Shown here: piece by piece, positions 1-46,617 of the stretch | Layout: every line of letters starts with the position of its first letter | Position numbering within the stretch: the first letter of the stretch is position 1 | Source of the DNA: a virus | Taxonomy: Duplodnaviria; Heunggongvirae; Uroviricota; Caudoviricetes | Length of the DNA stretch: 64,000 nucleotides | Reading direction: 5' to 3' (one strand) | Virus record (IMG/VR): IMGVR_UViG_2675903278_000002 | Program-made: the position numbers and the translations under genes | The notes under the pieces: generated by a model | Told to the model about the DNA's origin: nothing | Databases searched by the model: none | What the model saw: the letters and a program-made list of their open reading frames with translations, nothing else

Positions 1-26
1 GGTGGTTCAAACTGGCTACGGTTACC

Positions 27-3437: not shown

Positions 3438-3503
3438 TCAAGGTGAATGGTGAGGGGCCACCCTCACCAATTCAGGATATTCACATCAAAAAGGAGATTA
3501 GAT

Positions 3504-4286
3504 GTGCCAATTGTCGGTGTTCCCGGTTGGATTGGGTCTTCGGCTGTCAGTGTGACAGGCCAGAGATGGATGAGTGCGGCTCGAACGGCGGTGCAACTGC
3601 CAGCGGCTGGTTCAATGTCTCAAATGGCCGGGCGATCTAAAGAAGTTCAGTACAGCATCGGTGCGAATCATAACTACAACAAAGACACACTGATCAACTA
3701 TTTAAAATCCCAGGGGGCGACGCCAGTCGTTGTTACCATTACAGGGGATCTGGTGTCGTCCAGTAGCGGCGTGCCATGTTTAGATTTCCCGAGTTCACTT
3801 ACCAACTCTTATATCAGCCTTGTAATCAACGCAGGTGTGACTGTCTATGGACGCGGTGGCAATGGTGGTAGTAACGCTGCCGGTGCTGCTGGTGGTAACG
3901 CAATTAATAATGGCATCGGTACACGCTTGCGTATTACGAATAATGGTGCAATCGCTGGAGGTGGTGGCGGCGGTGGCGGTGGTAACAGGGGTAAACTAAT
4001 ATTTGGTGGTGGCGGTGGTCGCCCATTCGGTGCTGGTGGGTCTTCCTCTCATATGAGTTCCGGTGCAACTGCTGGTACTATTTCCGCTCCTGGTAAAGGA
4101 TCTGTTGGTGAGGGGTCTCTTAGTGCATATACAGGCGGTTCGGGTGGTAATGTCGGTGCTGCTGGAGGAAGATGTAATACTCAAGGTAACGGTACAGAAT
4201 ATAACGGCGGGGCAGCTGGTAAAGCCGTAACTGGCAACGCGCCTACATGGACTAAAGCTGGGGCAATTTACGGCGCTCATGTGTAA
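3504..4286 (+). CDS. Glycine-rich hypothetical protein, possibly tail-fiber associated; proposed GTG start
   Basis: ORF 3447..4286; AAGGAG at 3491..3496 sits 7 nt upstream of GTG 3504; long poly-Gly tracts (GGGGGGGGGN, GGGGG); lies between tail fiber and lysis genes. Confidence 0.45.
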   Translation: MPIVGVPGWIGSSAVSVTGQRWMSAARTAVQLPAAGSMSQMAGRSKEVQYSIGANHNYNKDTLINYLKSQGATPVVVTITGDLVSSSSGVPCLDFPSSLTNSYISLVINAGVTVYGRGGNGGSNAAGAAGGNAINNGIGTRLRITNNGAIAGGGGGGGGGNRGKLIFGGGGGRPFGAGGSSSHMSSGATAGTISAPGKGSVGEGSLSAYTGGSGGNVGAAGGRCNTQGNGTEYNGGAAGKAVTGNAPTWTKAGAIYGAHV

Positions 4287-4360
4287 GTACTTACCTACCA
4301 AGTGTGGGCGTTTTATGATATAAAACCGCCATCCCGATTTGACTTTTCATGGAGGAAAAC

Positions 4361-4684
4361 ATGTCGAACGAGATGGCGGGCGTTACAACAGAGCAAGTTG
4401 AGCGTATTGCCGCGATCGTTGCTCGGGAGGTTGTTGGCAAATTAGGTAAAGAGCTACGTGAAGAAATTGGCCAGGAGGTCAATGATCAGCTGAAAACCTA
4501 CTTTGGTGATATGACCCCGGCGCAACATAGTATTCAACACTCCAATCTGGACAAACTCCTTAACCGGTTAGATTCCATCTCAAGTGGGTTCTTTGGCGGC
4601 ATTGTTTCTAAAATAACGTCGTTCATTATTACCGCACTGCTTTTGGGGTTAGCCGCGTATGGCGTAAAAAGTGGACTGCAATAA
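4361..4684 (+). CDS. Small membrane protein, holin candidate
   Basis: GGAGG RBS before ATG 4361; hydrophobic C-terminal segment ITSFIITALLLGLAAYGV; immediately upstream of the putative endolysin. Confidence 0.4.
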   Translation: MSNEMAGVTTEQVERIAAIVAREVVGKLGKELREEIGQEVNDQLKTYFGDMTPAQHSIQHSNLDKLLNRLDSISSGFFGGIVSKITSFIITALLLGLAAYGVKSGLQ

Positions 4685-4697
4685 CAGGAGATCAAGG

Positions 4698-5390
4698 ATG
4701 AAAACTCCGAGAGGCATTCGTAATAACAACCCTGGCAACCTCGACAAAGGTTCGCCGTGGCAGGGGCTAATCGACAACCCTGCCGAACCGCGCTTTTGCA
4801 CGTTTAAAGACCCTGTTTGGGGGATTCGTGCGCTGGCGGTGACTCTAATTACCTACCACGACAAACGTCGCGCAAAAGACGGCTCAAGTATCGATACCAT
4901 TCGTGAAGTTATTGAACGTTGGGCACCGCCGAATGAAAACAATACTGACGCCTACATTAATGAGGTGTCTAAAGCCGTTGGTGTAACCGCAGACATGATT
5001 ATCGATCTGCATGATTACGACATTCTTCGACCTTTGGTTGAGGCAATCATTCGCCATGAGAATGGGCGAGGTCCGCTAAAAACGCTGAACACCTGGTATG
5101 CGGCAGAAGTTATTGAGGAAGGTCTGCGTCGAGCTGGCGTTGTTAAGCCGGCGAAAACCGTGAAGGCTGTTCCTGTAACTAAAGAAACCGCAGGCGCAAC
5201 TGTTACAGCAGGTATTGGTCTGGCGCAGCTGGCCGATGTTATGCCGCAGGTTTCCGCTGCTATGGATAAAGCACAAGGTCATATCTCTAGCGGGGATACA
5301 GTACGCATCATCTTCGGTATTGCCACTATTGTTGTGGCAGGATTCATTGCCTGGTCGCAGGTAAGAAAACACCAGAAAGGGATGGTCTAA
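4698..5390 (+). CDS. Putative endolysin or peptidoglycan hydrolase (family not assigned)
   Basis: AGGAG RBS before ATG 4698; N-terminal GIRNNNPGNL motif; gene order small membrane protein - this gene - i-spanin - o-spanin matches a canonical lysis cassette; C-terminal hydrophobic segment is atypical. Confidence 0.45.
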   Translation: MKTPRGIRNNNPGNLDKGSPWQGLIDNPAEPRFCTFKDPVWGIRALAVTLITYHDKRRAKDGSSIDTIREVIERWAPPNENNTDAYINEVSKAVGVTADMIIDLHDYDILRPLVEAIIRHENGRGPLKTLNTWYAAEVIEEGLRRAGVVKPAKTVKAVPVTKETAGATVTAGIGLAQLADVMPQVSAAMDKAQGHISSGDTVRIIFGIATIVVAGFIAWSQVRKHQKGMV

Positions 5391-5391
5391 T

Positions 5392-5643
5392 ATGCTAGGC
5401 AGCCTGATGACAAAGCTAAAAGTTGCTTTGATTACGCTGGCTGCCGTTCTTTTCGTTCTTGTCGGCGCTTACACGATGGGCGGGAATGCGGCGCGACGAG
5501 CAATGGAAGAGAAGGCAAAACAGGAAGACAGAAAACGACTTCAAAACACAGTGAAAGTGGTGAATGAGACGAGCAGTAAAATACGTCAGAAAGATGCTTC
5601 TGCCGTTCATCGTGAGTTGTATGATAAGTGGGTGCGTCATTAA
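5392..5643 (+). CDS. i-spanin (Rz-like inner membrane spanin subunit)
   Basis: N-terminal transmembrane helix LKVALITLAAVLFVLVGAY followed by a charged coiled-coil-like region; start overlaps the upstream stop; contains the o-spanin gene in another frame. Confidence 0.6.
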   Translation: MLGSLMTKLKVALITLAAVLFVLVGAYTMGGNAARRAMEEKAKQEDRKRLQNTVKVVNETSSKIRQKDASAVHRELYDKWVRH

Positions 5644-8007: not shown

Positions 8008-9714
8008 ATGGAATCGATAGAAGTATTTTTAAAAAATTTTTTGGACTCAGATCATCGGGTTGCTGTCATAAAAGGAAATTGGGGAGTAGGTAAAACGCAT
8101 TATTGGAATAGCTTTTATACTAAACATTCTAAAAAATTAGATTTTAATGCATATTCATATGTTTCTTTGTTTGGAATAAATTCTATTGGAGACATTAAAA
8201 AAGCTCTTTATCATTGTGCCACACCAATTAATGAAAAGAAATATAAAGAACTGATTTTATCTGAAACGGATCGAACTATGATTCGTTATAGAAATGGGTT
8301 TTGGGGATGGTTGAAATACAACTCCTTGTCAAAATTTTTAATACATTTTGGAAAGAACGATTTTTTTGGGTTCAAAACTGATAATCTGCTGTCATCTCTT
8401 GAGTATAAATTTGTTAATAATTATTTGGTTTGCATTGATGATATTGAACGAAAAGGTAGTGCGCTAGAAATTAAAGAGATTATGGGGGTAATTGATGAGT
8501 TGGCAAGAAGAAAAAATTGCAAGGTTGTTCTAATATTAAATGAAGATAACTTACATGAAGAAACTGCACAACAACAGTTTTTAGAGTATAGAGAAAAAAT
8601 AATTGATGTGGAAATAAAATACGATCCCACGCCTGAGAAAAACTTAAGAAAAGTTTTTTATGAGACTGACCCTGATTTTCTTTTGTTAAAAAACCTAGTA
8701 AATGATTTAAACATCAAAAACATTAGAATATTAAATAAAATAAAATCATCTCTAGTTATATTTAGAGATGTGCTAAAGTTAGCAGAGGATAAGGTTAGAG
8801 AAAGTTTTATTAATAGATTGGTCTTATTTTCAGTGGTTTACTATTTTGGTGTTCCTAGCGTTGATTATGCTTCATTTAAGGAGTCAATCAAAAATATACA
8901 TGCATTCGACTATATGTTAGATGATAAAGATGAAAAGGAAGAAGTTAACTCTGTATATTCATTTGTTAATAGCCTTGATGTTATTTATGAACGAGCAGAA
9001 AGTGCTTTCGATGATGATATAGATTTTTACCTTAAGAACGGTTATGTTTCTTCTGAAAGCAATATTCTAAATATAATAAAAGAAAAAAATGAACAATATA
9101 GAGATAATAGGGTTTTATGTGAGGTTTATAAAATTTGGGATGTTTTTAGAAACTCTTTTAAAGATAATGAATCAGAGTTTATTTTTCAAATTGAGCGCGT
9201 AATTAACGATAGTCTGTTGCGTATACCAATTGGACAGTTCGTAGGTTTAATAAATGTCCTAATTAAATTGGATAGAGATTGTAATAATATTATAGAGGCA
9301 TATGCAGATGCTTTTGTTAATAAAGACAATGCGTATGCTACATTTAATTCTTTGCGAGTAGAGATCTTCGGAAATGAAGAATTAGGTTTCAGAATTGAAA
9401 AAAAATTGAAAGATAGAAATCCAGATGACTATAACTTAGATAAAATTATAAAAAAAATAGCTGGTGGAAGATTTAACCATAGTGATGTGAATATTCTTAA
9501 CAGTTTTTCTAAAGATGATTACGTAAACTGGATATTATCCTGTGATCAGGATGCTTTGAATTTAGTAGAAGAGACTATGCTCAAGTTCAAGGGTATGCAA
9601 CACCCGACAGACGAACAGAAGAGCATCACTGATAAAGCAATAGAAGCTTTGGAGGAAGTTGCTTCAAAATCAACACTTAATAAGCTGCGTGTTAATAAAA
9701 TACTCAATCATTAA
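8008..9714 (+). CDS. KAP-family P-loop NTPase
   Basis: Walker A GNWGVGKTHYW near the N-terminus, diagnostic of KAP NTPases; 568 aa; coding sequence visibly far more AT-rich than neighbours. Confidence 0.75.
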   Translation: MESIEVFLKNFLDSDHRVAVIKGNWGVGKTHYWNSFYTKHSKKLDFNAYSYVSLFGINSIGDIKKALYHCATPINEKKYKELILSETDRTMIRYRNGFWGWLKYNSLSKFLIHFGKNDFFGFKTDNLLSSLEYKFVNNYLVCIDDIERKGSALEIKEIMGVIDELARRKNCKVVLILNEDNLHEETAQQQFLEYREKIIDVEIKYDPTPEKNLRKVFYETDPDFLLLKNLVNDLNIKNIRILNKIKSSLVIFRDVLKLAEDKVRESFINRLVLFSVVYYFGVPSVDYASFKESIKNIHAFDYMLDDKDEKEEVNSVYSFVNSLDVIYERAESAFDDDIDFYLKNGYVSSESNILNIIKEKNEQYRDNRVLCEVYKIWDVFRNSFKDNESEFIFQIERVINDSLLRIPIGQFVGLINVLIKLDRDCNNIIEAYADAFVNKDNAYATFNSLRVEIFGNEELGFRIEKKLKDRNPDDYNLDKIIKKIAGGRFNHSDVNILNSFSKDDYVNWILSCDQDALNLVEETMLKFKGMQHPTDEQKSITDKAIEALEEVASKSTLNKLRVNKILNH

Positions 9715-32150: not shown

Positions 32151-32582
32151 GTGAACACTGATATTTTTTCTAAAATCATGGCCGATCTGGAGTTCGACCG
32201 CGACAACCTTGAGGAAGTATGGCGTAAACAGCCACGGCTTTTAATGGAGTATGGGTCAAAACTAGCGCAGGCAGATCGAGATGTCGCAGAGGCAAAACTT
32301 AACCTTGAAGCTGTTGAAGCAAAGCTATACGACACAGAGCGTAAGAACTTGAGTATGAACGGCATTAAGTTTAACGAGTCTGTACTGGACGCTAAGGTTA
32401 AAACAAACCCACAGTATCTGTCTAAACGGCAGAAGTTGGATGAAGCACGGCACATCGCAGACATATACAAACATGCTGTCGCCGCCTTTTCGCATCGCCG
32501 AGACATGATCGTTCAGGCGTCAAAGATGGCCATCGTTGAATTAGAGCGATTAGGCTCTGAACGCTTTATTACTCCCCGTTGA
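32151..32582 (+). CDS. Hypothetical coiled-coil protein (GTG start)
   Basis: 143 aa ORF; charged helical composition. Confidence 0.4.
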   Translation: MNTDIFSKIMADLEFDRDNLEEVWRKQPRLLMEYGSKLAQADRDVAEAKLNLEAVEAKLYDTERKNLSMNGIKFNESVLDAKVKTNPQYLSKRQKLDEARHIADIYKHAVAAFSHRRDMIVQASKMAIVELERLGSERFITPR

Positions 32583-32699
32583 TTTTTGATAGATAATAAG
32601 TAAGTACTGATCTATCATCTAACAGCTCGAAAGAGCCACGAATGAACGAAAGCCCAACGCGCATAGCGCCATCGGCCAAATCACAACAAGGAGAAACAC

Positions 32700-33728: not shown

Positions 33729-33743
33729 TCCCATTACGTGACC

Positions 33744-33775
33744 AGTAAGGCGTCTACGGACGCCTTACTTTTTGG
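33744..33775 (+). terminator. Rho-independent terminator (GTAAGGCGTC-TACG-GACGCCTTAC + TTTTT)
   Basis: Read directly; member of a shared AGGCGTC...GACGCCT terminator family with 36079..36108 and 37217..37246. Confidence 0.7.
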
Positions 33776-33787
33776 AAGGAATGTACC

Positions 33788-34733
33788 GGTGAATTATCTC
33801 TTCGTAGATGGCAATAGCCTGGGTTATTACCACCAACAATCTGACAAATTGCACAACGGCGAAATGGAAGTACAGGCTGCTTTCGGCTTTGTTAAGAACG
33901 TCCGTCGTTATGCCTCCATCCTCCATGCCCGACCTATGATTCTTTGGGATGGATTTAGTGACAAGCGTCGCGACTTTTACCCGGACTACAAAGCAAATCG
34001 CGACGACGATCCTGATATGAAAAAGATGAAGGAAGGCTTTGCTATCCAGAAGCCATACATCCTCAAAATGATGACCGCGCTTGGAGTTACCCAACTCATT
34101 GCAAAAGATGCAGAAGCGGATGATCTGGCCGGGCTGCTGGTATCCCGCATGGCACCGCAGCCAACCGTTGAACACATCTATCTGTTAACAGGCGATAGCG
34201 ACTGGCTTCAGTTAGTTCGTGAAAACGTAAGCTGGGTAAGCCTGCGTGAAGACGCCAAAAACAAGCAGGTTAATTTTGAGCAATTTGCGGAGCTGACAGG
34301 ATTCGCCACGCCTCGCGCATTTTTGGAAGCAAAAGCATTACAAGGCGATAACTCGGACAACATTAGCGGTGTTGGTGGCATTGGTGCTGGCGGTGCGAAA
34401 GAGCTGCTGCATGAATGGGGAAGTGTCGCAACGATGGTACGCGGCATCAACGACGGCTCAATCGTGGTTAATAAAGGGCGTCATAAGACCGCCTTCAACA
34501 AACTAGCGAAGAATGCCTTCAACGAGAAAACAGGCTGTCGAATGCTCGAAGCGTTCAAGAGAAACATCACGCTAATGAACCTGATTGAGACGAAGTTTCC
34601 GCCTACCGAAATCGAAACAATCAAAGGCAATCGTGACGTGAAAGCATTCGAGCAACTGTGCTACGAGCTGAATTTCCGTTCGTTCCTTGAAGACCTTGAA
34701 GTGTTTGTTCTTCCATTCGAAAGGTATTGCTAA
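33788..34733 (+). CDS. 5'-3' exonuclease / flap endonuclease (FEN, T4 RNase H / T5 D15-like)
   Basis: PIN-like motifs DGNSLGYY, AEADDLAG, LTGDSDWLQL and H3TH-like GVGGIGAGGAKELL; GTG 33788 chosen because the annotated ATG 33738 lies upstream of and runs through the terminator hairpin. Confidence 0.7.
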
Positions 34734-35001: not shown

Positions 35002-36075
35002 ATGGCAAAAGGAAAATCCGCACTGGCACTTGCTCTGAAAAAGAAAATCGGTAGCAACGACGAAATTCAGAAAGTAACTCATTGGATTGATACAGGCTTT
35101 CCACCGTTAAACAAAGCTATTTCTGGTCGTTACGATGGCGGCTTCCCATGTGGTCGTATCGTCGAAGTATTCGGTCCTCCAAGTGCAGGGAAAACGTTCC
35201 TTGCAACAGCAGCGATGATCTCCGCTCAAAAACAAGATGGTCTGGCGGTATTCCTCGATCATGAAAACAGTTTTGACGTTGGCCTGGCTGTAGCCAATGG
35301 CCTGAACGCAGATGAGGATGACGGTCAGTGGGTATACAAGCAGCCAGATACCTTCGAAGACTCTGTAGAGTTGATCGGCACAATACTTAAATTGGTTCGT
35401 GATGAAGAGCTTATCCCCGAATCAGCACCTATCTGTATCGTGGCTGACTCTCTTGCGTCTATGGTTCCGAACTCCAAAGCCGAGAAGTTCGAAAAGATGG
35501 CTGAAGGCACTGCCAAAGACAAAGATCAGCTAAACATGAACGACAATACGGCACTGGCTCGTGCGACGAGTGCGAACTTCCCTACTCTGGCTTTGTGGGC
35601 ACGCAAATACAACGCCTGCATCATCTTCTTGAATCAGGTTCGCACAAAAATCGGTGTAATGTTTGGCGACCCTACTACGTCGCCAGGTGGAGATTCACCG
35701 AAGTTCTACGCTTCTGTACGTATCCGTCTTGGTGCATCGGTGATGAAGGATGGTAAAGAGAAGATCGGCCAGGACGTAGGCGCAGAATGCATCAAAAACA
35801 AAGTTGCACCACCGTATGGCAAATGCACCTGGAAATTCTACTTCGATCCTACTCGTGGCCTCGACGTTATCGAATCGCTCGTCGAGTACATGCTGGAAGA
35901 AGGATACCTGCCAAAGAACGCCAGCGGGCGAGTTGAAATTGGTGACAAGAAATACACCAAATCGCAGATCGTTGAGATGTATCGGGAGAAGCCACTGGCT
36001 GAAATCATTGCGGCTTTGCAGGCAATCGACGACCGAAGAGCAAAAGACAACCCCACCGAGTCAGTAGAAGAGTAA
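35002..36075 (+). CDS. RecA-family recombinase (RecA/UvsX-like)
   Basis: Walker A GPPSAGKTFLA and RecA-like core; 357 aa. Confidence 0.8.
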   Translation: MAKGKSALALALKKKIGSNDEIQKVTHWIDTGFPPLNKAISGRYDGGFPCGRIVEVFGPPSAGKTFLATAAMISAQKQDGLAVFLDHENSFDVGLAVANGLNADEDDGQWVYKQPDTFEDSVELIGTILKLVRDEELIPESAPICIVADSLASMVPNSKAEKFEKMAEGTAKDKDQLNMNDNTALARATSANFPTLALWARKYNACIIFLNQVRTKIGVMFGDPTTSPGGDSPKFYASVRIRLGASVMKDGKEKIGQDVGAECIKNKVAPPYGKCTWKFYFDPTRGLDVIESLVEYMLEEGYLPKNASGRVEIGDKKYTKSQIVEMYREKPLAEIIAALQAIDDRRAKDNPTESVEE

Positions 36076-36078
36076 ACA

Positions 36079-36108
36079 CAAGGCGTCCACAGGACGCCTT
36101 TTTTATCT
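36079..36108 (+). terminator. Rho-independent terminator
   Basis: AAGGCGTCC-ACAG-GACGCCTT + TTTTAT. Confidence 0.75.
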
Positions 36109-36167
36109 CTTGAAAATATATAAGTACTTACTTATTATTTTCGCATAACAACCACATAGGAAAACAC

Positions 36168-36368
36168 ATGATCAAAATCTATCTATTGGCAGTAACCACA
36201 GGCCTTTCAGTGGCTCTCATCTACGGTTTACTGGTTCCGTCGCTGATTTCTACCAAGAGTGATTTAGCCGTCATGTTTGGAGTTATCGTTGGTTTTGGTG
36301 CTCCTGTAATCGGTCTTATTGCTGGTCGTAAGTTTATCAACTCATTAATCAAAGCAAAGGGGAAATAA
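36168..36368 (+). CDS. Small two-helix membrane protein
   Basis: 66 aa hydrophobic ORF; ATG preceded by GGAAAACACATG. Confidence 0.45.
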   Translation: MIKIYLLAVTTGLSVALIYGLLVPSLISTKSDLAVMFGVIVGFGAPVIGLIAGRKFINSLIKAKGK

Positions 36369-36371
36369 GTA

Positions 36372-37202
36372 ATGAAGAAAGGTTTACTTGCAGTTGCTCT
36401 GGCGGCTATTTGCACAATGGGTCTTACTGGCTGCGATCGCGTGGAGCCTGGATACGTTGGCATCAAAGTAAACAAATTAGGTGAAGACAAAGGGATTGGT
36501 GAAGTGGTTGGCGTTGGTCGCCAATGGACAGGTCTTAACACCGAACTTTACGTATTCCCGACCTTCAAACAAATGAAGACCTACGACGAGCCGTTCACAT
36601 TCCAGATGAGTGACGGTACTGCTATTGGTCACAAAATTGGCGTTGCGTATCTGGTTAATCGTGACAAGGTAACGACGGTGTTCCAGACCTATCGCAAAGG
36701 CGTAGACGATATCACCGAATCAGATCTGCGTCAGAAAATTGCCGACTCTCTAAACCGTTTGGCCAGCCGTATGACCACTGACTCATTTATCGACGGTGGT
36801 AAGGCACAATTGCTGGACAACGCACTGAAAGATATTCAGAAAGAGATGTCTCCGGTTGGTATTGAGGTACTGAGCCTGTCATGGGTTGGAAAGCCTGATT
36901 ACCCAAAAACTGTCATTGAATCTATTAACGCCAAAGTAACGGCTAACCAGCGTACTCTGCAACGTCAGCAGGAAGTTGAACAACGTAAAGCTGAGGCGAA
37001 TATGCTACGTGAACAGGCTAATGGTGAAGCTGATGCTATCCGTGCTCGTGCGCAAGCAGAAGCAGACGCCATTCGTCTGCGCGGTGAAGCTCTGCGTCAA
37101 AACCCGAACGTTATGGAACTGGAAGCCATCAATAAATGGAATGGCCAGTTACCGCAGTACATGACTCAAGGGGCTAACACTCCTTTCATTACAGTGAAAT
37201 AA
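36372..37202 (+). CDS. SPFH/band-7 domain lipoprotein
   Basis: Signal peptide with lipobox LTGC; SPFH-like core and C-terminal coiled coil rich in EA/RA repeats. Confidence 0.6.
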   Translation: MKKGLLAVALAAICTMGLTGCDRVEPGYVGIKVNKLGEDKGIGEVVGVGRQWTGLNTELYVFPTFKQMKTYDEPFTFQMSDGTAIGHKIGVAYLVNRDKVTTVFQTYRKGVDDITESDLRQKIADSLNRLASRMTTDSFIDGGKAQLLDNALKDIQKEMSPVGIEVLSLSWVGKPDYPKTVIESINAKVTANQRTLQRQQEVEQRKAEANMLREQANGEADAIRARAQAEADAIRLRGEALRQNPNVMELEAINKWNGQLPQYMTQGANTPFITVK

Positions 37203-37216
37203 CTCCCCTAAAAAGT

Positions 37217-37246
37217 TCAGGCGTCCAGTTGGACGCCTTTTTTATC
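37217..37246 (+). terminator. Rho-independent terminator
   Basis: CAGGCGTCC-AGTT-GGACGCCT + TTTTTTAT. Confidence 0.75.
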
Positions 37247-37293
37247 GCAATTATCTTATTAAGAAAACAATTTGTTTAAAAGGATAAGAAAAC

Positions 37294-37719
37294 ATGACAG
37301 CTATTAAGAAACTCTACGATGCCGCAAACGTGGCTCTGGATGTTATTGATGATGAAGTAGCAAAAGGCTTTCCTGAACCTGATTGGGCGCATCAGCTACG
37401 AAACGCTATCGCAGAAATGACCCCACCAGATCCAACCCCCGACGAGACAGACTGGCAGCGATTCATCCGTATGTACGCTCAGGAAATAGGTCCAACGCCA
37501 ACGGCAGAGCAGGCAATGCTGCTGAAATACTTCAAAGAGGCGGGAGAGGATTTACCAATTGATGACTCAGCATATTGGTTCCACTGCGCATGGCGTAAGT
37601 ATGACGTGATATTCACACAAGGCATGGGAAGCAAAGATATGGTTGTGTGGCATCTACTCCATATAGACACAGCCGTTGACAGAGTTATTGAACAGTTTTT
37701 CCCTAAACAAGAAGATTGA
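37294..37719 (+). CDS. Hypothetical protein
   Basis: 141 aa ORF; upstream AAACAATTTGTTT palindrome and AAAACATG start context. Confidence 0.5.
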   Translation: MTAIKKLYDAANVALDVIDDEVAKGFPEPDWAHQLRNAIAEMTPPDPTPDETDWQRFIRMYAQEIGPTPTAEQAMLLKYFKEAGEDLPIDDSAYWFHCAWRKYDVIFTQGMGSKDMVVWHLLHIDTAVDRVIEQFFPKQED

Positions 37720-37774
37720 TCGCCTATTCATAACTAACAAAATAAGTAAACACTAACCACAAAAGGAAAAACAC

Positions 37775-38050
37775 ATGAGAGTTTTAGTTCGAATCGTTAC
37801 CAGCACTGTCTATGACGTGTTTCCGCTTTTTATGGTCAAAGCCGATGGCCTTAACGACGAAGAAACTGACGCGCTGATCCAGCGTATTCTCGTTGAATAT
37901 ACAGGTCATGACGCTGATTCAGTGATGGTTGATGATGATGGTGTTTGTTGGCATAACGGCAACTGTTGGTACGTAGAAGAGACTCAACAAATCAGTGATG
38001 AAGATGCCGAACATCTTGAGCGTATTTTAAGCATCAGCACTTTTGAGTGA
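37775..38050 (+). CDS. Hypothetical acidic protein
   Basis: 91 aa ORF with GGAAAAACACATG start context. Confidence 0.5.
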   Translation: MRVLVRIVTSTVYDVFPLFMVKADGLNDEETDALIQRILVEYTGHDADSVMVDDDGVCWHNGNCWYVEETQQISDEDAEHLERILSISTFE

Positions 38051-38265
38051 GTTTACAGTAAAATTTATATAAGTTAGTATCTACCTATCATGAAGATTTT
38101 TATTGAATACTTGTTACTCATCGTTTCAATAGCTTTTGTCATCGACTGCATTTTCACTGGTGTCATTCGTAAAGTCTTTTCCCCGGTGCACGACGTAGTC
38201 ATAAACGCTTTGGCTATCGTGCTCGTATTTAATTCAGCATTTGATGTAATCAAAGAGGTGGCAGC

Positions 38266-38601
38266 ATGAAGGCCATCCCATTCGCGCTGTTGTTCCTTTC
38301 TTCGATCGTTGTGGCCGACACCACTGTTTATCAGTGTGAAATGTCTGTAGCCGACGTTAAGAATGGCGCTCTTACCGACGTCATAAAAGCACCATATGGA
38401 GCGATGGTCGTAGACAGCGGCGACCAGTTCTATGTTGTGCGTGACGATCGAGTGTTGTCATCCCCATATCTCACAAATCGTAATGGCAAATTAACCGGCG
38501 TCGGAGAAGACCACTTCGTATACAACAAATACAAGGGCTTCTATGGCGTTCACGCTTCTCAGCAAAGCTACCTTTTCGATGACTGCAAGGAGGTTGGATA
38601 A
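38266..38601 (+). CDS. Hypothetical secreted protein
   Basis: N-terminal signal-peptide-like MKAIPFALLFLSSIVVA. Confidence 0.45.
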   Translation: MKAIPFALLFLSSIVVADTTVYQCEMSVADVKNGALTDVIKAPYGAMVVDSGDQFYVVRDDRVLSSPYLTNRNGKLTGVGEDHFVYNKYKGFYGVHASQQSYLFDDCKEVG

Positions 38602-38813
38602 TGGCATTAACACTGGCAGGTCTGGAAATCGAGAAAACAAGCGGCTACTGGCGTGCTAAGGGTTTCAAGCAGCCTGGCATTCTTGAGCGTCTGGAACGTG
38701 AAGATGGGTATATCGTCCACCAGCGGCGTGAATGGCGTATGTACGATCCAGAAACAGGAAAACTGACTACAAAAGCCGGAACACTTTGGGGTCTGTTGAA
38801 GAAAATACACTAA
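38601..38813 (+). CDS. Hypothetical protein
   Basis: 70 aa ORF with start overlapping the upstream stop. Confidence 0.35.
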   Translation: MALTLAGLEIEKTSGYWRAKGFKQPGILERLEREDGYIVHQRREWRMYDPETGKLTTKAGTLWGLLKKIH

Positions 38814-38821
38814 TAGCACCA

Positions 38822-39300
38822 ACCACTGCGGTGAGTAGTCTGCTCACCGCATTCGTATCCAGCTCATTATCCACTGTAGTCAGTAACAAAACCTTCCTAC
38901 ATATCTGCTAACCACTGTAGCGAGTAGACAGCCTTTCATTCGCATCAAACAACCACTATGGTGAGTATTGGAGTGAGATGTCCAGCGGGTATCCACTATG
39001 GTGAGTAAGCCTTTGCTGTTTTCAGTGGATATCCACTCGCCACAGTGGATACGCTCAAAGATGAGGGCGACAACAACCACTATAGACAGTAAATTTTCCA
39101 AGATACCCAGTGACCACTAACCTCGCAGCCCTTGTTTCATCAGTGTTAGTGATCACTAACATTTAATTCAGTATTTGCATTCTACTGCCTACAGTGGTTA
39201 TCAACAGATAACGATACTCACTATAGTGGATAGCGAATTACAGATATAAGTAAGGCTCACTACAGTGGATAGTGAGCCTTACTACTAACTACAGTGGTTG
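38822..39300. repeat. Iteron array downstream of the rep gene (copy-control, incA-like): roughly ten copies of CTATAGTGGAT / CCACTATAG-type repeats in both orientations
   Basis: Direct reading: CCACTGTAGTGAGTAG, CCACTATGGTGAGTA, ATCCACTATGGTGAGTAAG, CTCACTATAGTGGATAGCG, CTCACTACAGTGGATAGTGAG and others. Confidence 0.75.
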
Positions 39301-39302
39301 GG

Positions 39303-40358
39303 CTATTTGCGAGTCTTTGCCTTGCGCAACTCTTCGAGAAGCGCCAGTTCTTCTTTACTCAACATGACCATTTTGCCTTCTTTTTCGTCAGGCACAACGT
39401 CGATAATGTCATCTTGATTCTCATCTGGGAGGCTATATTCCGTCTCATCATTATCGATTTTTGTTGATATTTGTGCCTGGCGTAACTTTGGCCGCCTATA
39501 GTGGATGACGAAGTAGACCGAGTTTCCGCGCTTAACTTCCGTGTAATCGAGATATCCTATCTCTCGCAGCTGTTCCATAGCCTTTCTTACCGTCGCATTC
39601 TGAGTAATAGTGCGACTTGTCAGATTAAGTCTGGCGCGTAAACGGGCTAGTGATATTGGTGCCGGATCAGGCGGCAAACTTTCAATAAAAGTATAAAGCG
39701 CCTGAGCGGATTCTTTTCTTGAGAGTTCGTTTATAGCCCGGAGTTGCAGAAGAACCTTTTTGTCGAACTGGTAGAGTTCGAAAATCTTGGGATCTGCTTT
39801 CAGTTCGACCGTATCGTGCTTGACACTATATTTTGCCGTTTGCACAAGATGCGTTACGTAAAACTCATCAGAGCCTTTGCTACGGAACGAGATGGTATTT
39901 GTGGCAATACGGCTTAGCGAACTGTCCAGGCGTTTGCGTAACTTCGCTGATGACCTGGCGGTCGGAATGCCACACAGCCTTACAAACTCAACGAACGGCA
40001 ACGTGACAGTATCGCCAACGACCTTGTGTTTGGCAAACGCGTGGATTATTCCCACCCACGTTTTAAAGTCGTTATCCATATCAAGCCGAAGGCCAGAGAT
40101 CCTTATGTCTTCGTACCCTTCGGCTTTTGCCAGAGACAGCTGTTTGAGTTCAGCAGAGGCATCCATAGAGACCATTTGCCCCTTTCTTCCTCTGGATGTC
40201 GATTTCAGCGTCGGAACGAAGAGGCCCAGACGCATCAAAGCAACAGGCTGAACAGTGTTATTAGTGTTAGGAACCAACGTAACAACTTCGCCTGTCTTTT
40301 TATCTGTTTCTGAAAATGCTTCAACGATCGCTATGTTTTTATTGCCGTTTTCGCTCAT
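39303..40358 (-). CDS. repA: Iteron-binding plasmid replication initiator (RepA-like)
   Basis: 351 aa ORF flanked on both sides by iteron arrays, with DnaA boxes and an AT-rich stretch upstream. Confidence 0.75.
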
Positions 40359-40384
40359 TCCAAATGTCTCTTGTTATTCGACGG

Positions 40385-41000
40385 CTTTGGTGGCCTTTGC
40401 TGATTACAGTGGATAGTAGCACTCATCACAGCGGTTATCCTACCGTCTATAGTGGTTTTTCTCCTCTCTATAGTGGTTGCTTTGCTCCCTATAGTGGATT
40501 ATTCGCTCTCTATAGTGGATATCGATCATGTCTGAAGGCAGATGGCACAACGGTTTGAGGTGGGCGGGGATCTTATTGGGTCTTTATGGGTCTCTTTGGT
40601 TCTCTTTGTGATCTGAATTACTGGATCGGGCCTGTGGATAAAAATCAGAGGATTTCAAGAACAGGTAACTCTACTCTTCTGTGGATATTTAAGGACATAA
40701 GAATCATGACTAAGAGTAGAGTTTAAAATATATCTATGTATATCAGTATGTTAATGAAGAATTAAGTCATTAAGTTATCCATAAAAGACAATGTGCTCTA
40801 CTCTCTACAGTGGATATATACAGCTCTCCAGAGTGGTTGTTTTACTCTTCATAGCGGTTATTCAGCTCTCTACAGAGGTTTCTTTGCTCTCCATAGTGGA
40901 TGGCAACACCCTTTCAGACCAGTAACCGCAACGGCTAGAGGCGATCGGGGATCTCTTTGGATCTTCTATTTGATCTTACTTGGGATCTCTTATTTGGATC
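40385..41000. promoter_or_regulatory. Putative plasmid replication origin: two clusters of approx 21-22 bp iterons (40385..40525 and 40795..40920), DnaA box TGTGGATAA at 40633..40641, AT-rich segment 40690..40790 and GGATCTCTTT-type repeats
   Basis: Tandem CTCTATAGTGGAT(T/A) repeats at regular spacing; DnaA-box matches; position immediately upstream of repA. Confidence 0.7.
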
Positions 41001-41101
41001 TATCCAGTGGATAACTGGGATAAGTAAAACAGGCAAATGCAGATTAAGGTATGCCTAATGAGTTATCGTAGCATCGGCCAATAACTACTGAAAAAACGAT
41101 T

Positions 41102-41746: not shown

Positions 41747-42000
41747 CCCTCCAGATCGTATATTGGCGTAGATAGAATCTACGCCCCCTCAAAATAGCTC
41801 TCATAGCGTTCTACAGTGATCCAGTCTTATTTTTAGTCATACAGACAAGCAAAGTTGCGCCACGATAAATAGGTATATACTTACTTATAAATTTTGTATA
41901 TTAAGGCGCTCGTTTCATTCCTAACATACCGTTATGCATAGTTGTTTACCTCCTCATTGCTCTTAGAATTTGTATCAAAATAACCACAAAGGAAAAACAC

Positions 42001-43086
42001 ATGACTTTGCCATACGGCGTCATTTCTGACTGCCACTACCACAAATGGGATGCGTTCTCCACGACGAACGCTGAGGGGCTTAACTCCAGACTTGAAATAC
42101 AGTTGGAAGCAACGAAAGAAGCAGCCATCGCCATGAAGAAGGCCGGTTGTAAGTACATGTTGGTTGCCGGTGATACATTTCACGTCCGAGGAACTGTGTC
42201 CCCTTCTGTTTTGCATTACGTAACTGAAACGTACAAGTGGATTATCAACGAGCTTGATCTGACAGTAGTAATGCTGGCCGGTAATCACGATCTTGAAACC
42301 AACGATTCAGTATATAGCGCCAACGCAGCAGCATCGCTGAGTTCTATCGGCGTGGTAATCGTATGTGGCAAGCGCCCACACTCAATAAAAATTGGTGATG
42401 TGACTGTCCACCTGATTAGCTGGCGTAACAATCATGCGGAGCTTATCAGCGATCTGAAAGCATTACGTAAGAGCGTAGAAGGTGATAATCATGACGTTGT
42501 TATCCATACATCCATTAACAAAGCCATTCCAACAATGCCTGACGTCGGTATCGATGCGCAGGAGTTAAAGGATATCGGCTTTCGTCTCGTGCTTAGTGGG
42601 CATTACCACAACCACAAAGAGGTCATTCCTGGAGTTATCAGTGTCGGTGCACTGACTCATCAAAATTGGGGAGATGTTGGATCTCTGGCTGGCTACATGA
42701 TCGTAAACCCGGACGGCAGTTTCAGTCACTACGAAACCAGTGCGCCTAAATTCATTAACCTGGAAGATGATGTTGCTGATGACCAAATTCGCGGCAACTA
42801 CGTGCGTTTCCGCGCCGTAATTGAGAACGATGAAGAAGGCATTAAGTACCAGAACATCCTCAAAACAATGGGTGCAAAAGGTGTCGTGTGCAACTTCATC
42901 CGTAAGTCATCAATGATGGAAGGTACAGCCAGCACAACTGAAACCAGCAAAATCGATAGCCTGGGAGAGTCGGTATCTGCTTATTGCAAGATTGTCCACG
43001 ATACTGACGGCGGATTTGATCTGAGCAAATTGGATATTTTGTGTCAGGAAATCCTCACCGAAGCGGAGAGTTCGGAGGCTGTGTGA
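42001..43086 (+). CDS. sbcD: SbcD/Mre11-like nuclease (calcineurin-like phosphoesterase)
   Basis: Metallophosphatase motifs GVISDCHYH, LVAGDTFH, MLAGNHD; followed by the SbcC-like ATPase gene. Confidence 0.8.
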   Translation: MTLPYGVISDCHYHKWDAFSTTNAEGLNSRLEIQLEATKEAAIAMKKAGCKYMLVAGDTFHVRGTVSPSVLHYVTETYKWIINELDLTVVMLAGNHDLETNDSVYSANAAASLSSIGVVIVCGKRPHSIKIGDVTVHLISWRNNHAELISDLKALRKSVEGDNHDVVIHTSINKAIPTMPDVGIDAQELKDIGFRLVLSGHYHNHKEVIPGVISVGALTHQNWGDVGSLAGYMIVNPDGSFSHYETSAPKFINLEDDVADDQIRGNYVRFRAVIENDEEGIKYQNILKTMGAKGVVCNFIRKSSMMEGTASTTETSKIDSLGESVSAYCKIVHDTDGGFDLSKLDILCQEILTEAESSEAV

Positions 43087-43315
43087 AGCAAAGTCGTTAT
43101 GGGAGCTTTCGAGACTTTGCCATCACGATGAAAAGACTTGAACGAGGCCAGACGGTGATGTTTCACAAGCCCTACCCGCCACAAGGAAATCCCGTAGCGT
43201 TTTATCTTGGAAGGTTAACAAGAAAAGGCGTATTGAGGCGCAGATCCTTCCCGGCGCATACGGAGTTCAGATTGAAAGAAGGCCAAAAGCTAACACGCGG
43301 TATCAGAGGTGTTAT

Positions 43316-45232
43316 ATGAAGTTTTTAAAGCTCCAGGTTGAGAATTTTATGGCTATCGCCAGCGCGGAGGTCGAGTTAGATCAGCGTGGTTTAGTGCTTA
43401 TTCAGGGTGTTAATAGTGATGATAGTTCCGCATCAAGTAATGGCTCTGGAAAGTCAACTCTAATGAATAGCCTGATGTGGTGTCTTTATGGCGAAACAGC
43501 TCATGGTGTGAAGGGTGACGATGTGTTGTCTACCGACCATGAAAAGAACTGTCGTGTTGCAGTAACCATCGAGGATGAAGGCAAGAGATACGCAATCATT
43601 CGTCACCGTAAACACAAAGAGTTCAAAAATCGTCTTATCGTTCGTGGTGAAGATGGCGATATGACGAAAGGCAAAGATGCGCTGACGCAGGAGTTCGTCG
43701 AGCGTCTGATCGGTGCATCTAAAGAGGTTTTCATGGCTTCCATCTATGCGAGCCAAGAAGCTATGCCAGATTTACCTGGAATGTCCGACAAAAACCTCAA
43801 AACCATCGTAGAAGAAGCCGCTGGCGTTGACAGACTGACACGCGCCTACGCTATTGCTCGTGAGCGAGCTAATGCAGCTGCCGCACGTATGGATGTGGTT
43901 AAAACCAAATTGGAGTCGACAATCTCGACCATTGAGGCAACACAGTCAGAAATTGAGTCAGCGAAAGCCTCCTCTGAATCATGGGAGCAAGAGCGTTCTA
44001 AACGTTATGACGATGCCCTGGCTGGGCTGGCCAGTGCCGAAGTTGAGTTAACGGAAGTTGAACTTGAGATCCGCACTCTTCCCGAACAGATACGTGATAC
44101 CGAGAAGGCAATCGAAAGTGAGCGCAAAAAGTTAGCCTCAAAAGAAGAACATGACGCCAAGTTGCTCAAAGTTCGTGGTGCGATAACTGATATTCGGGCA
44201 AGCATCAAAGCTACAGAAAATAGTCAGGCTGATGCAATGAACCGCGCGCGTAATTTTAAGACCAAAGCAGAAGAGGTTGGTACTAAAGTGGGATCACCAT
44301 GCCCTACTTGTGGCAAAGCCTACTGCGAAGAAGATCTATCAACGGTGAAGGAGAGTTTCATTGAACAAGCACGTCAGGAAATTGGTCAGGCGAAGACACT
44401 TGCAGAGGCAATGGCTAAACACAAAACGAATCTTGAGAAAGCGTTAAGCATTGAGTCTGCCCTTGTTAAAACGACACCTGATGTAACGGCTATCATTGCC
44501 CGGATTGAAGAGCTTACGAAACAACTCTCATCTTTGCGTCATCGTGAGAAGGAGGTTGTTGCTATTGAGTCTCTTGTGACTCGTGCTCGTACTGAGGTCG
44601 ATCGTATATCAAAAGAGATTAATCCGTTTATTGCTCTTATCGCCAGACACGAAGATAACTTGGTATCCAGTAAGTCTACCTTCAAGTCCTTAAAAGATGA
44701 GTCGAAGGCTATTCAGGAACAAACGTTGCTATTGGAAAAAGCTCGTCAGGTCTACTCTCCTGCCGGGGTGCGTTCTCATATTTTGACGTCTGTTACGCCT
44801 TTCCTGAATACACGCACTGCCGAGTATCTCAATACGTTGTCTGACGGGAATATTACTGCTGAGTGGTCGACGATGGATGTCACTAAAAAAGGTGAGTATC
44901 GCGACAAATTCAACATTAGTGTGCAGAAGAAAGGTTCAAGTAAGTCGTTCCAGACCCTCTCTGGTGGTGAGAAGCGGAAGGTTCGCATTGCGTGTTCTTT
45001 GGCATTGCAGGATCTGGTTAGTAACCGGGCGAGTAAAAACATCGATTTGTTTATCGGCGACGAAATTGACGATGCACTCGATACAGCCGGTCTTGAACGC
45101 CTCATGGGTATTCTGGAGTCCAAAGCTCGCGAGCGAGGTACTGTGCTGATTATCTCCCATAAAGAGATGAAGTCATGGTTCCGGGAAACTATTACGCTGG
45201 AAGTTAAAGAGGGGCGCAGCTATGTCGTTTAA
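43316..45232 (+). CDS. sbcC: SbcC/Rad50-like ATPase
   Basis: N-terminal Walker A GSGKSTLMNS, central coiled coil with CPTC zinc hook, C-terminal signature LSGGEKRKV and D-loop. Confidence 0.85.
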   Translation: MKFLKLQVENFMAIASAEVELDQRGLVLIQGVNSDDSSASSNGSGKSTLMNSLMWCLYGETAHGVKGDDVLSTDHEKNCRVAVTIEDEGKRYAIIRHRKHKEFKNRLIVRGEDGDMTKGKDALTQEFVERLIGASKEVFMASIYASQEAMPDLPGMSDKNLKTIVEEAAGVDRLTRAYAIARERANAAAARMDVVKTKLESTISTIEATQSEIESAKASSESWEQERSKRYDDALAGLASAEVELTEVELEIRTLPEQIRDTEKAIESERKKLASKEEHDAKLLKVRGAITDIRASIKATENSQADAMNRARNFKTKAEEVGTKVGSPCPTCGKAYCEEDLSTVKESFIEQARQEIGQAKTLAEAMAKHKTNLEKALSIESALVKTTPDVTAIIARIEELTKQLSSLRHREKEVVAIESLVTRARTEVDRISKEINPFIALIARHEDNLVSSKSTFKSLKDESKAIQEQTLLLEKARQVYSPAGVRSHILTSVTPFLNTRTAEYLNTLSDGNITAEWSTMDVTKKGEYRDKFNISVQKKGSSKSFQTLSGGEKRKVRIACSLALQDLVSNRASKNIDLFIGDEIDDALDTAGLERLMGILESKARERGTVLIISHKEMKSWFRETITLEVKEGRSYVV

Positions 45233-45965
45233 ATTAAGCCGCTCGCAGTTTTTGCAGGTATTTGCAGTGATGCAGTCGATAAAACTGATCAATGGGCATA
45301 CTTCCAATGGTGCGGCTCCACGTATTCTGTGGGGCAGCAACAATATTGACGGAGTACAATTCGCCGCGTTGCTTGGTCTAATATCCGAGACGCCATTGAT
45401 GCAAAGTTTGAAATCACTACCACCTGGATGTATTGCGCCGATCCTGATTAATCCTTTTGTTGAGGGGGGATATCTTCCCAACGTCGGGCCTGGGTTTATT
45501 GCATCCCATGAAACTGAAGATCTTAACATTAATAGCGAAGGGTTCTTTGGGGGAATGGGTGCGCATCACTGTATGGCTTTCACGAACCTTATTCGACTTG
45601 CCAATAAGCGGGTGGATAGTTTGGCATCGCCAGGTGATGCTTTTACTGGTTTCCTTATCCAAAGGAGGGATAAAAAGTACAGTGCGGACAAACTACAGTT
45701 TGTTGGTAAGTATGGAGAAATGGTAGAAATCGAACTTCAGCTCCCTCATGTTTTAGCAAACGATAGTGCAGACAGTCGGAGGCTATTGGGCATCATGCGT
45801 CATTTCATAGCAAGTGGTGTTAAACATGCCGCAGATAAACGTGTCACGCAGGAAAATGAGTATTCAGACTTTGCAAACTATCCCCAACCAACGTTGCAAA
45901 CGGCAATAGTAGCCAATTCGTTGGAGGCGAGATTATTGGAAAACCCTATATGGGGAACATGGTAA
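45222..45965 (+). CDS. Hypothetical protein
   Basis: 247 aa ORF overlapping the sbcC stop. Confidence 0.45.
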   Translation: MSFKLSRSQFLQVFAVMQSIKLINGHTSNGAAPRILWGSNNIDGVQFAALLGLISETPLMQSLKSLPPGCIAPILINPFVEGGYLPNVGPGFIASHETEDLNINSEGFFGGMGAHHCMAFTNLIRLANKRVDSLASPGDAFTGFLIQRRDKKYSADKLQFVGKYGEMVEIELQLPHVLANDSADSRRLLGIMRHFIASGVKHAADKRVTQENEYSDFANYPQPTLQTAIVANSLEARLLENPIWGTW

Positions 45966-45974
45966 GGAGACTAT

Positions 45975-46544
45975 ATGAGTAAAAAAATCAGCGTAGTTGG
46001 TGTTGATCCCTCAATGAGCAACTTTGGGCTTGCTGTGGGCACTTTAGACCTTGAGACGGACGAACTTGAGATTCACGGCCTTACTCTTGTTGAGACTAAA
46101 GCGGGGAGTAACAAAAAGACCGTTCGTGTGAACAGTGACGATCTGCGCCGCGCCAGTGAAATATGGCGTGTTGCGAAGCCAATCATTGATAAGGCAAATA
46201 TGGTTTTTTGTGAGCTACCGGTTGGGAGCCAAAACTCTCGTTCGCAGACGTCTTACGGTATTTGTATCGGTGTACTTGCGTGTGTGGATAAGCCATTGAT
46301 CCAGGTTACTCCAAACGAAATCAAGCATTTTGTCGGCAATAAACTTACTACATCGAAAGAAGAGATTATCCAGTGGGCTACGAAAAAACACCCTAAAGCA
46401 CCGTGGCTGCGTCGTAAGCAATCTGGACAGGATGTTCTCGTGAACAAAAACGAACATTTGGCTGATGCGGTGGCTGCCATCCATACCGGTATGCAAACAG
46501 ATCAGTTCCGCCAGGTGCGCGATGTTCTTAAGTCTCTCATTTGA
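45975..46544 (+). CDS. RuvC-like Holliday junction resolvase
   Basis: N-terminal VVGVDPSMSNFGLAV and C-terminal HLADAVAAIHTG resemble the RuvC catalytic motifs. Confidence 0.55.
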   Translation: MSKKISVVGVDPSMSNFGLAVGTLDLETDELEIHGLTLVETKAGSNKKTVRVNSDDLRRASEIWRVAKPIIDKANMVFCELPVGSQNSRSQTSYGICIGVLACVDKPLIQVTPNEIKHFVGNKLTTSKEEIIQWATKKHPKAPWLRRKQSGQDVLVNKNEHLADAVAAIHTGMQTDQFRQVRDVLKSLI

Positions 46545-46577
46545 TTTCATTGATAGGTAAGTGCTTATCTATTAACA

Positions 46578-46610
46578 TGGGCCACTATATTTAGTGGCCC
46601 TCTTTATTTG
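46578..46610 (+). terminator. Terminator-like hairpin between the RuvC-like gene and nrdA
   Basis: GGGCCACT-ATATTT-AGTGGCCC followed by TCTTTATTT. Confidence 0.55.
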
Positions 46611-46617
46611 GTGATAC

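Follow-up and report, generated by a model that had tools for sequence, protein, structure and literature searches.

Escherichia phage Cyrano (OV696614), formerly plasmid pLF82 in E. coli LF82, is present at about 5.5 copies per cell, is temperate, is induced by genotoxic stress (ciprofloxacin) and makes siphovirus particles (PMC9928086). Recombination genes have been published among the persistent genes of the SSU5 supergroup of phage-plasmids (PMC7969092), and the Cyrano record already names SbcD-like, SbcC-like, RuvC resolvase, UvsY, gp32-like single-stranded DNA-binding protein (SSB), exonuclease and RecA products. In the paradigm of phage T4, gp46/47 resect DNA ends, gp32 coats the single strands and UvsY loads the recombinase UvsX (PMC3016280). 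The window analysed here, a stretch of 64,000 nucleotides from a Caudoviricetes genome (IMG/VR record IMGVR_UViG_2675903278_000002), carries at positions 42001-46544 a block of open reading frames (ORFs) for SbcD, a small protein, SbcC, a protein of 247 amino acids (aa) and a RuvC-like nuclease. A second block encodes a gp32-like SSB, a flap endonuclease (FEN), a small ORF and a RecA-type recombinase (Table 1). With a probability of roughly 0.6, we read these genes as the homologous-recombination set of an SSU5/Cyrano-type phage-plasmid, silent while the element persists through its IncFIB-type RepA/iteron plasmid replicon and turned on in the phage cycle.

Over the 4.5-kb SbcD-RuvC block, DNA identity is 99.8% to Cyrano, 99.1% to two further Escherichia phage records (CMS-2020a) and 76%, across 72% of the block length, to Salmonella phage SSU5 (JQ965645); many E. 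coli plasmids are 100% identical. Matches extend to 452 plasmid records from Escherichia, Enterobacter, Yersinia, Salmonella, Citrobacter, Shigella, Klebsiella and Cronobacter, 431 of which are typed as non-mobilizable. The window also encodes tail-fibre genes, a ParA-like ATPase and a Rep_3-type RepA with flanking 21-bp iteron arrays. The element is a phage-plasmid of the SSU5 supergroup rather than an ordinary low-copy plasmid. Over the block, its gene order is that of Cyrano, SSU5 and pHCM2-type phage-plasmids, SSU5 having two additional genes upstream of SbcD. A preliminary description of this DNA, which had placed the ORFs of both blocks exactly where we find them, called such a toolkit unusual for a low-copy plasmid. 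Because the element is a virion-making phage-plasmid of the SSU5/Cyrano type, the toolkit is instead expected, and it has been published as belonging to this group's persistent genome (PMC7969092). The recombination block is already known, being annotated in Cyrano and recognised as core of the SSU5 supergroup, and since this genomic-level annotation is in print our finding changes little. It confirms the common 'cryptic IncFIB plasmid' of E. coli, Salmonella, Klebsiella, Enterobacter and Yersinia as a phage with T4-style recombination and replication genes. A recombination system on such clinically widespread elements could influence gene exchange, the capture of resistance genes and copy-number bursts on induction. 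Undescribed as far as we have checked are an operator-like palindrome, the position of the plasmid replicon inside the array and a C-terminal tail shared by two proteins, all of them modest and unproven.

SbcD and SbcC are predicted to form a Mre11-Rad50-type exo-/endonuclease complex. SbcD matches Pfam Metallophos (8.4e-10, 39.8 bits against a cutoff of 21.5) and the 'SbcD-like' family phrog_100 (3.2e-93), and its phosphoesterase motifs DCH10, GDTFH57, GNHD94 and GHYH200 are collinear with those of T4 gp47, E. coli SbcD and the Bacillus phage CampHawk protein. SbcC matches AAA_23 (1.2e-15) and SMC_N (7.2e-14), both above their cutoffs, and phrog_77 (7.3e-164). Rad50 PDB chains (2.7e-11) align with each half of its ATPase head, and the motifs NGSGKST, SQ (Q-loop), LSGGE, DLFIGDE and SH can be read as those of a split ABC-type head. 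A single CPTC zinc hook stands at residue 329 of 638, is kept in 10 lineages and marks the midpoint in T4 gp46 and E. coli SbcC as well; the arms around it form a short putative coiled coil. SbcD is 23% identical to T4 gp47 (E 1.5e-9) and aligns with E. coli SbcD at E 0.036. SbcC is 21% identical to T4 gp46 over residues 1-617 (E 2.5e-19) and 27% identical to CampHawk SbcC over its full length (E 1e-66), whereas the N-terminal head alone aligns with the 1048-aa E. coli SbcC (E 4e-4). Because the pair lies closer to T4 and CampHawk than to E. coli SbcCD, the nuclease is of the phage gp46/47 type and not a captured host operon. A host origin of sbcCD was accordingly rejected, similarity to E. 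coli K-12 falling far below that to the phage homologues.

The nuclease genes are also arranged as in these phages. SbcD is paired with a downstream SbcC in 9 of 9 related loci examined, and the T4 order 47 - 46.2 - 46.1 - 46 corresponds to SbcD - small ORF - SbcC in the window. A tblastn search with SbcC returned 2273 phage records, the nearest beyond the SSU5 group being Herelleviridae. In these SPO1-like phages, which are virulent myoviruses of Firmicutes and include CampHawk, SbcC is 25-28% identical over its full length of ~640 aa; CampHawk shares the order phosphoesterase - small ORFs - SbcC-type gene, but in this group a primase gene, and not a RuvC-like one, follows SbcC. The 63-aa ORF between the window subunits is SSU5_074 in the SSU5 annotation and is without annotation in Cyrano. 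It is 77% identical in amino acids to its SSU5 counterpart, with substitutions distributed 14/9/29 by codon position, a signature of purifying selection, and the more distant relatives L011, L012 and L014 lack it.

SbcC also matches the PADLOC model for LmuB (2.1e-22, 78 bits), and a DefenseFinder survey lists 'putative' Lamassu-Fam systems in SSU5-group elements (bioRxiv 10.1101/2025.09.12.675607). Taken at face value, this would make the protein the LmuB subunit of a Lamassu-type anti-phage defence system, with its neighbours as LmuA and LmuC. However, on the phage SbcC family the protein reaches 549 bits, it is paired with a canonical Mre11-type phosphoesterase in which every motif is present, and gene order and zinc hook match T4 gp47/46, while SbcD, the small ORF, the 247-aa ORF and the RuvC-like protein match no PADLOC model. 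A cross-match is in any case expected, because LmuB is itself Rad50-like. We regard a Lamassu identity as highly improbable and rejected it, as the neighbours give no LmuA or LmuC signal and the partner is canonical Mre11. The 'putative Lamassu-Fam' calls published for SSU5-group phage-plasmids probably stem from this cross-match, and defence-system finders are likely to mislabel this SbcC as a putative Lamassu LmuB.

In the second block, the gp32-like protein matches PF08804 along model positions 1-208 of 208 (224.7 bits against a cutoff of 26.8), and neither BLASTP nor phmmer gives a significant match to T4 gp32 itself. By inspection it shows C73-x8-C82-x2-C85 and, close by, several His residues as candidate zinc ligands, and it has an acidic tail at its C-terminus, EDEGLDDLLRELDSL. 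The family scores of both blocks lie far outside what chance would give, and gp32, the two FEN domains and RecA leave no ambiguity. The FEN start codon is placed ~51 nt further downstream in the Cyrano annotation. The recombinase has the motifs GPPSAGKT and IVADS by reading; it is 32% identical to E. coli RecA (E 3e-39) versus 22% to T4 UvsX (E 5e-8), and in a PDB search it reaches bacterial RecA chains at 1e-31 to 1e-35 and T4 UvsX chains at 1e-5 to 2e-9. It is thus a RecA-type protein, UvsX-like in a functional sense only. Host capture of recA was rejected, identity to E. coli K-12 RecA being just 32%. Direct PDB sequence searches were empty for SbcD, the gp32-like and RuvC-like proteins and the 247-aa and 258-aa proteins, and their assignments rest on profile and fold evidence. 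The RecA of Cyrano (779 aa; L001 5735-8074) differs from that of the window, which has no intein, by a 422-aa intein in the P-loop that separates GPPSAGK from T, begins with C and ends with SHN; another relative, L019, carries inteins in NrdA.

Upstream of the gp32-like gene lies a candidate for the UvsY-like mediator. It matches the 'UvsY-like' family phrog_231 at 1.9e-4 over nearly its full length, and 7 of 15 close homologues match this family too. Among remote homologues, which come from a family with 3495 representative clusters, 5 of 42 match Pfam UvsY (PF11056; best 7e-5), which is the sole family matched by more than one of them. The window protein and its 14 close homologues have no Pfam UvsY match, and hhalign of the UvsY-like profiles against T4 UvsY gives a probability of at most 3%.

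The last gene of the SbcD-RuvC block encodes a putative RuvC-fold resolvase of four-way junctions. Its product has no Pfam match of its own, that to RuvC (PF02075) included, and no PDB sequence match; its profile reaches PDB RuvC at E 0.044, and 11 of 30 homologues match Pfam RuvC at E <= 0.1 (best 1.3e-6). The AF2 model (pLDDT 91, pTM 0.88) gives bacterial RuvC for all of the top 11 hits of a Foldseek search of the PDB (E 4e-9 to 2.5e-7, target TM 0.66-0.78), followed by MOC1, lactococcal phage RuvC and a poxvirus resolvase. D11, E80, H161 and D164 are invariant across the 30 homologues. D11 and E80 align with D7 and E66 of E. coli RuvC, and H161-x-x-D164-A is equated with the RuvC C-terminal motif by motif inspection only; hhalign of the profile against the single E. 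coli RuvC sequence gives a low probability. The protein shares the RNase H-like fold and the acidic/His catalytic tetrad with bacterial RuvC and with RuvC of Lactococcus phage bIL67 (PDB 4ktw, matched at E 4.7e-6), at just 13-18% sequence identity, and unlike bacterial RuvC it has no RuvA or RuvB partner encoded near its gene. As the Pfam RuvC model is unmatched, we file it as RuvC-fold (phrog_159) and not as a bacterial RuvC orthologue. Homologues of 45-49% identity also occur in two N4-like phages (L016 and L017, with a giant virion RNA polymerase gene nearby), where the RuvC-like gene adjoins an AAA_24 (Sak4-like) gene in place of SbcCD.

Set against T4, the window shares a homologous Mre11-Rad50-type nuclease, a gp32-family SSB, a RecA-superfamily recombinase, possibly a UvsY-family mediator, and a junction resolvase. 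Identities are low (20-23%), the recombinase is nearer cellular RecA than UvsX, and the T4 resolvase gp49 is endonuclease VII, to which the window resolvase is unrelated and a functional analogue only. The window polymerase is of the Pol III alpha type whereas that of T4 is family B, and the window element is temperate with a separate plasmid replicon. From these comparisons and those with E. coli, the T4 analogy holds for the nuclease and the SSB; for the recombinase and the resolvase it is functional only. The preliminary description fares accordingly. Hidden Markov models from Pfam and PHROGs support the families it had named for SbcCD, gp32, FEN and RecA, and its T4 gp46/47-like nuclease is borne out by the direct matches and the shared gene order given above. 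Its RuvC-like call holds through the PHROGs family and the predicted fold and fails at the Pfam model, and its UvsX-like recombinase turns out to be RecA-type.

A 20-bp palindrome, ATAGGTAAGTACTTACCTAT, links the two blocks. Eight sites occur in the window at <=3 mismatches, against 0.00 expected by chance; the palindrome heads both recombination blocks, the checked sites are intergenic and ahead of plus-strand gene blocks, and the site at 56105 lies upstream of a methyltransferase gene. Three copies, before gp32, after recA and before nrdA, sit between sigma70-like -35 and -10 hexamers with 17-nt spacing. SSU5 (L002) has six sites in its homologous 31 kb (6481, 18561, 23297, 28437, 29495 and 30690), among them the nrdA-upstream copy at L002:18561 with 1 mismatch, and before SbcD and gp32 it carries copies with 4 mismatches at positions matching those of the window. 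Terminator-like hairpins after RecA and RuvC suggest two transcription units, gp32-FEN-orf90-RecA and SbcD-orf-SbcC-orf247-RuvC; promoter and terminator sites were used only if they fall on the conserved palindrome or at the end of an operon. In Cyrano lysogens, according to the literature, the recombination genes do not figure among those with high transcription. The -10 of the nrdA promoter-like sequence ends at 46578, directly before the hairpin at 46579-46600 (window 46550-46617), and as a speculation an nrdA transcript starting ~7 nt past this -10 would begin in the 5' arm of the hairpin and could escape the terminator of the RuvC operon.

These sites suggest candidate operators of a repressor-controlled lytic regulon with dispersed sites in the style of phage-plasmid P1. 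P1 has a RepA/iteron replicon and lytic genes under scattered C1 operators. As in the window, its repA has flanking iterons and its dispersed lytic operons are each headed by one operator-like sequence; this is a functional parallel and not a claim of homology, and the P1 operator differs in sequence from the palindrome of the window. To our knowledge P1 lacks the SbcCD/RecA/gp32/RuvC set.

The recombination genes stand beside a replisome. The window also encodes a DnaB-like helicase, a primase, an ATP-dependent ligase, Pol III alpha and an epsilon-like exonuclease, so that all classes of T4-type recombination-dependent replication are encoded in it: nuclease, SSB, mediator (as a candidate only), recombinase, helicase/primase, polymerase and resolvase. 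What the analysis shows are the identities of the genes, their catalytic motifs, the fold, the layout of the operons and their conservation through the lineage. We infer repressor control at the palindromes, an order of events and, from gene content, recombination-dependent replication. After derepression, the gp47/gp46-type SbcD/SbcC complex would resect DNA ends, the gp32-like SSB would coat the single strands and the possible UvsY-like mediator would load the RecA-type recombinase. The element's own replisome, with FEN and ligase, might then take over the D-loops and generate branched concatemers, whose junctions the RuvC-fold nuclease would resolve before packaging.

Several points weigh against this model. 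In the searchable literature we found no experimental work on these genes for any element of the SSU5 type, and literature searches on recombination-dependent replication in phage-plasmids and on an SSU5 operator or repressor gave nothing relevant. Promoter and terminator scans alone are not enriched over shuffled sequence, and the assignment of the putative UvsY-like mediator is weak. No gp59-like loader or UvsW-like helicase was found among the scanned window ORFs near the helicase, primase and ligase genes. The toolkit that the preliminary description called near-complete is larger than it had listed, gaining helicase, primase, ligase, Pol III alpha, epsilon-like exonuclease and the weak UvsY candidate. 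The element may also replicate from a lytic origin in the ordinary theta or sigma mode.

A related proposal is that bulk lytic replication starts from a dedicated origin and that the enzymes serve mainly recombinational repair and genome cyclisation, by which a terminally redundant linear genome becomes a circle; they would also mend breaks made by host restriction or CRISPR. P22 Erf and host RecA or Cre circularise the P22 and P1 genomes. The gene identities fit this proposal equally well, the failure to find gp59 and UvsW analogues among the scanned ORFs sits easily with it, and a separate tyrosine recombinase (21015-22118) is encoded in an element that has to close into a circle before it can live as a plasmid. 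Yet the genes are embedded among, and co-oriented with, replisome and nucleotide-synthesis genes, and a full Mre11-Rad50 and RuvC set exceeds the needs of joining redundant ends. We judge this proposal unlikely to displace recombination-dependent replication, and treat cyclisation and repair of infecting DNA as a serious alternative or additional role.

Directly after the SbcD-RuvC block follow nrdA, nrdB, mazG-like, thyX, polynucleotide kinase and dihydrofolate reductase genes, a linkage conserved in relatives. This neighbourhood would suit an SbcCD that chiefly degrades host DNA for nucleotide salvage and feeds the NrdAB-MazG-ThyX-DHFR-kinase genes, and in T4, mutation of 46/47 impairs the breakdown of host DNA. 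Such a role leaves the RuvC-like gene and the RecA/gp32 block unexplained, and it is compatible with the recombination model and not exclusive of it; as the chief function it seems quite improbable.

The ~5 kb between the two blocks (window 36100-41100) hold small ORFs, a stomatin-like gene and, on the minus strand, repA, whose ~21-bp iterons (families D1-D8) form arrays flanking it at 38818-39300, 40396-40525 and 40797-40906. In the metagenomic relative L012 (positions 1-5600), whose RuvC is 48% identical, both blocks are contiguous with no replicon between them, in the order gp32-FEN-RecA-(ASCH-like)-(orf)-SbcD-SbcC-(orf)-RuvC-NrdA-NrdB. Because the blocks are contiguous in this distant relative, the replicon appears to have been inserted in an ancestral phage array of DNA-metabolism genes. 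The order SbcD-SbcC-x-RuvC-ribonucleotide reductase is kept in Xenorhabdus, Klebsiella, Raoultella, Photobacterium and 4 metagenomic contigs, and the array gp32-FEN-RecA-...-SbcD-SbcC-x-RuvC-NrdAB is conserved where RuvC is just 46-69% identical.

The gene between SbcC and RuvC is the most variable member of the block. The 247-aa protein has just 48 homologues, all in enterobacterial SSU5-like elements; its AF2 model (pLDDT 62) has no fold match, and it matches no Pfam or PADLOC model. A post-SbcC gene is nevertheless present in every lineage, abutting or overlapping the SbcC stop and encoding 142 to 290 aa. The bodies of its products are 13-23% identical to that of the window, which is noise level, whereas RuvC is 46-69% and SbcC 39-63% identical in the same lineages. 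Yet the post-SbcC protein ends in [WFY]-[GA]-[STM]-[WF]-COOH in 10 of 10 lineages (WGTW, WATW, WGMF, WGMF, FGSF, FGSW, FGTW, YGSW, FGSW and FGTW). This motif, defined after inspection of the data, ends 13 of 642 long reading frames in all DNA compared: 12 are the post-SbcC gene and the 13th encodes the 258-aa protein between primase and ligase. In Enterobacter, Y. pestis pFra and Klebsiella, every homologue of the latter (33-42% identity) terminates in GWATW, and the tail is present in 5 of 5 lineages. No similarity is detectable between the bodies of the 247-aa and 258-aa proteins, both of which evolve fast, nor between the 247-aa counterparts across lineages.

We argue that the tail is functional, because it is confined to two genes and kept across deep divergence. 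A tentative explanation, possible though on balance doubtful, is that it is a C-terminal docking peptide comparable to the C-terminal tip of SSB or to clamp-binding motifs, which would tether both proteins to one hub such as the gp32-like SSB, Pol III alpha or the host clamp. If so, it would link end resection physically with replication across a widespread lineage of phages and phage-plasmids. Palindrome and tail offer cheap handles on the lysis-lysogeny regulon and on the protein interaction network of SSU5-type phage-plasmids, respectively.

Table 1. Features of the two recombination blocks and their surroundings, in window coordinates.
Feature	Position	Strand	Evidence or remark
Protein between primase and ligase, 258 aa	13359..14135	+	Tail S-W-G-S-W
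Candidate UvsY-like recombination mediator, 143 aa, weak	32151..32582	+	phrog_231; named UvsY in Cyrano
Operator-like palindrome	32596..32615	+	104 nt upstream of gp32-like ATG, within sigma70-like promoter match
gp32-like ssDNA-binding protein, 342 aa	32700..33728	+	Pfam gp32 1.7e-66; phrog_1192 7e-116
5'-3' flap endonuclease (FEN / Pol I 5'-exonuclease type)	33738..34733	+	5_3_exonuc_N 2.2e-24; 5_3_exonuc 6.9e-12; phrog_107 4.1e-65
Small conserved ORF between FEN and RecA, 90 aa	34727..34999	+	phrog_2207 5.1e-54; SSU5_059 in SSU5
RecA-type recombinase, 357 aa, intein-free allele	35002..36075	+	Pfam RecA 2.2e-42 (145.8 bits); phrog_97 1.1e-91
Terminator-like hairpin	36080..36100	+	End of gp32-FEN-RecA unit
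Operator-like palindrome	36116-36135		After RecA, downstream of terminator-like hairpin
Plasmid replicon (context only)	38818..40906	-	RepA 39303-40358; Rep3_N 1.3e-10; phrog_775 6.8e-146
ASCH-like protein, 214 aa	41102..41746	+	phrog_2105 1.1e-132; homologue between RecA and SbcD in L012; ASCH in Cyrano
Operator-like palindrome ATAGGTATATACTTACTTAT	41869..41888	+	132 nt upstream of SbcD ATG
SbcD / Mre11 / T4 gp47-type nuclease subunit, 361 aa	42001..43086	+	Pfam Metallophos, phrog_100, motifs I-V
Small basic ORF between SbcD and SbcC, 63 aa	43128..43319	+	phrog_37951 9.9e-39; stop overlaps SbcC ATG
SbcC / Rad50 / T4 gp46-type ATPase subunit, 638 aa	43316..45232	+	AAA_23, SMC_N, phrog_77
Hypervariable protein, 247 aa	45222..45965	+	Start overlaps SbcC stop by 11 nt; phrog_2117 sole family match; tail W-G-T-W
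RuvC-fold Holliday-junction resolvase candidate, 189 aa	45975..46544	+	phrog_159 3e-57, predicted fold, invariant residues
Operator-like palindrome	46553-46572		Between -35 TTGATA and -10 TAACAT, ahead of nrdA
Terminator-like hairpin	46579-46600	+	After RuvC-like gene, before nrdA; boundary region 46550..46600
All palindrome sites, 20 bp each	4279, 19281, 32596, 36116, 41869, 46553, 56105, 63290		

Elsewhere in the window, the gene of the tyrosine recombinase, a candidate for dimer resolution or a Cre-like function, adjoins an opposite-strand gene for a small helix-turn-helix protein (22113-22499), which is a candidate repressor; CYRAN_45 of Cyrano is another. Genes for a CobT-like VWA protein and a MoxR/CobS-like AAA_5 ATPase lie directly upstream of Pol III alpha (23062-26501), a pair that occurs in many phages and that PHROGs labels 'porphyrin biosynthesis'. 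A YafO-family toxin gene is found at 20431-20841. At 8008-9714, a gene for a KAP-family P-loop NTPase occupies a sharply AT-rich island (GC 0.31 versus ~0.46 elsewhere) and was probably acquired recently, as an accessory or defence gene.

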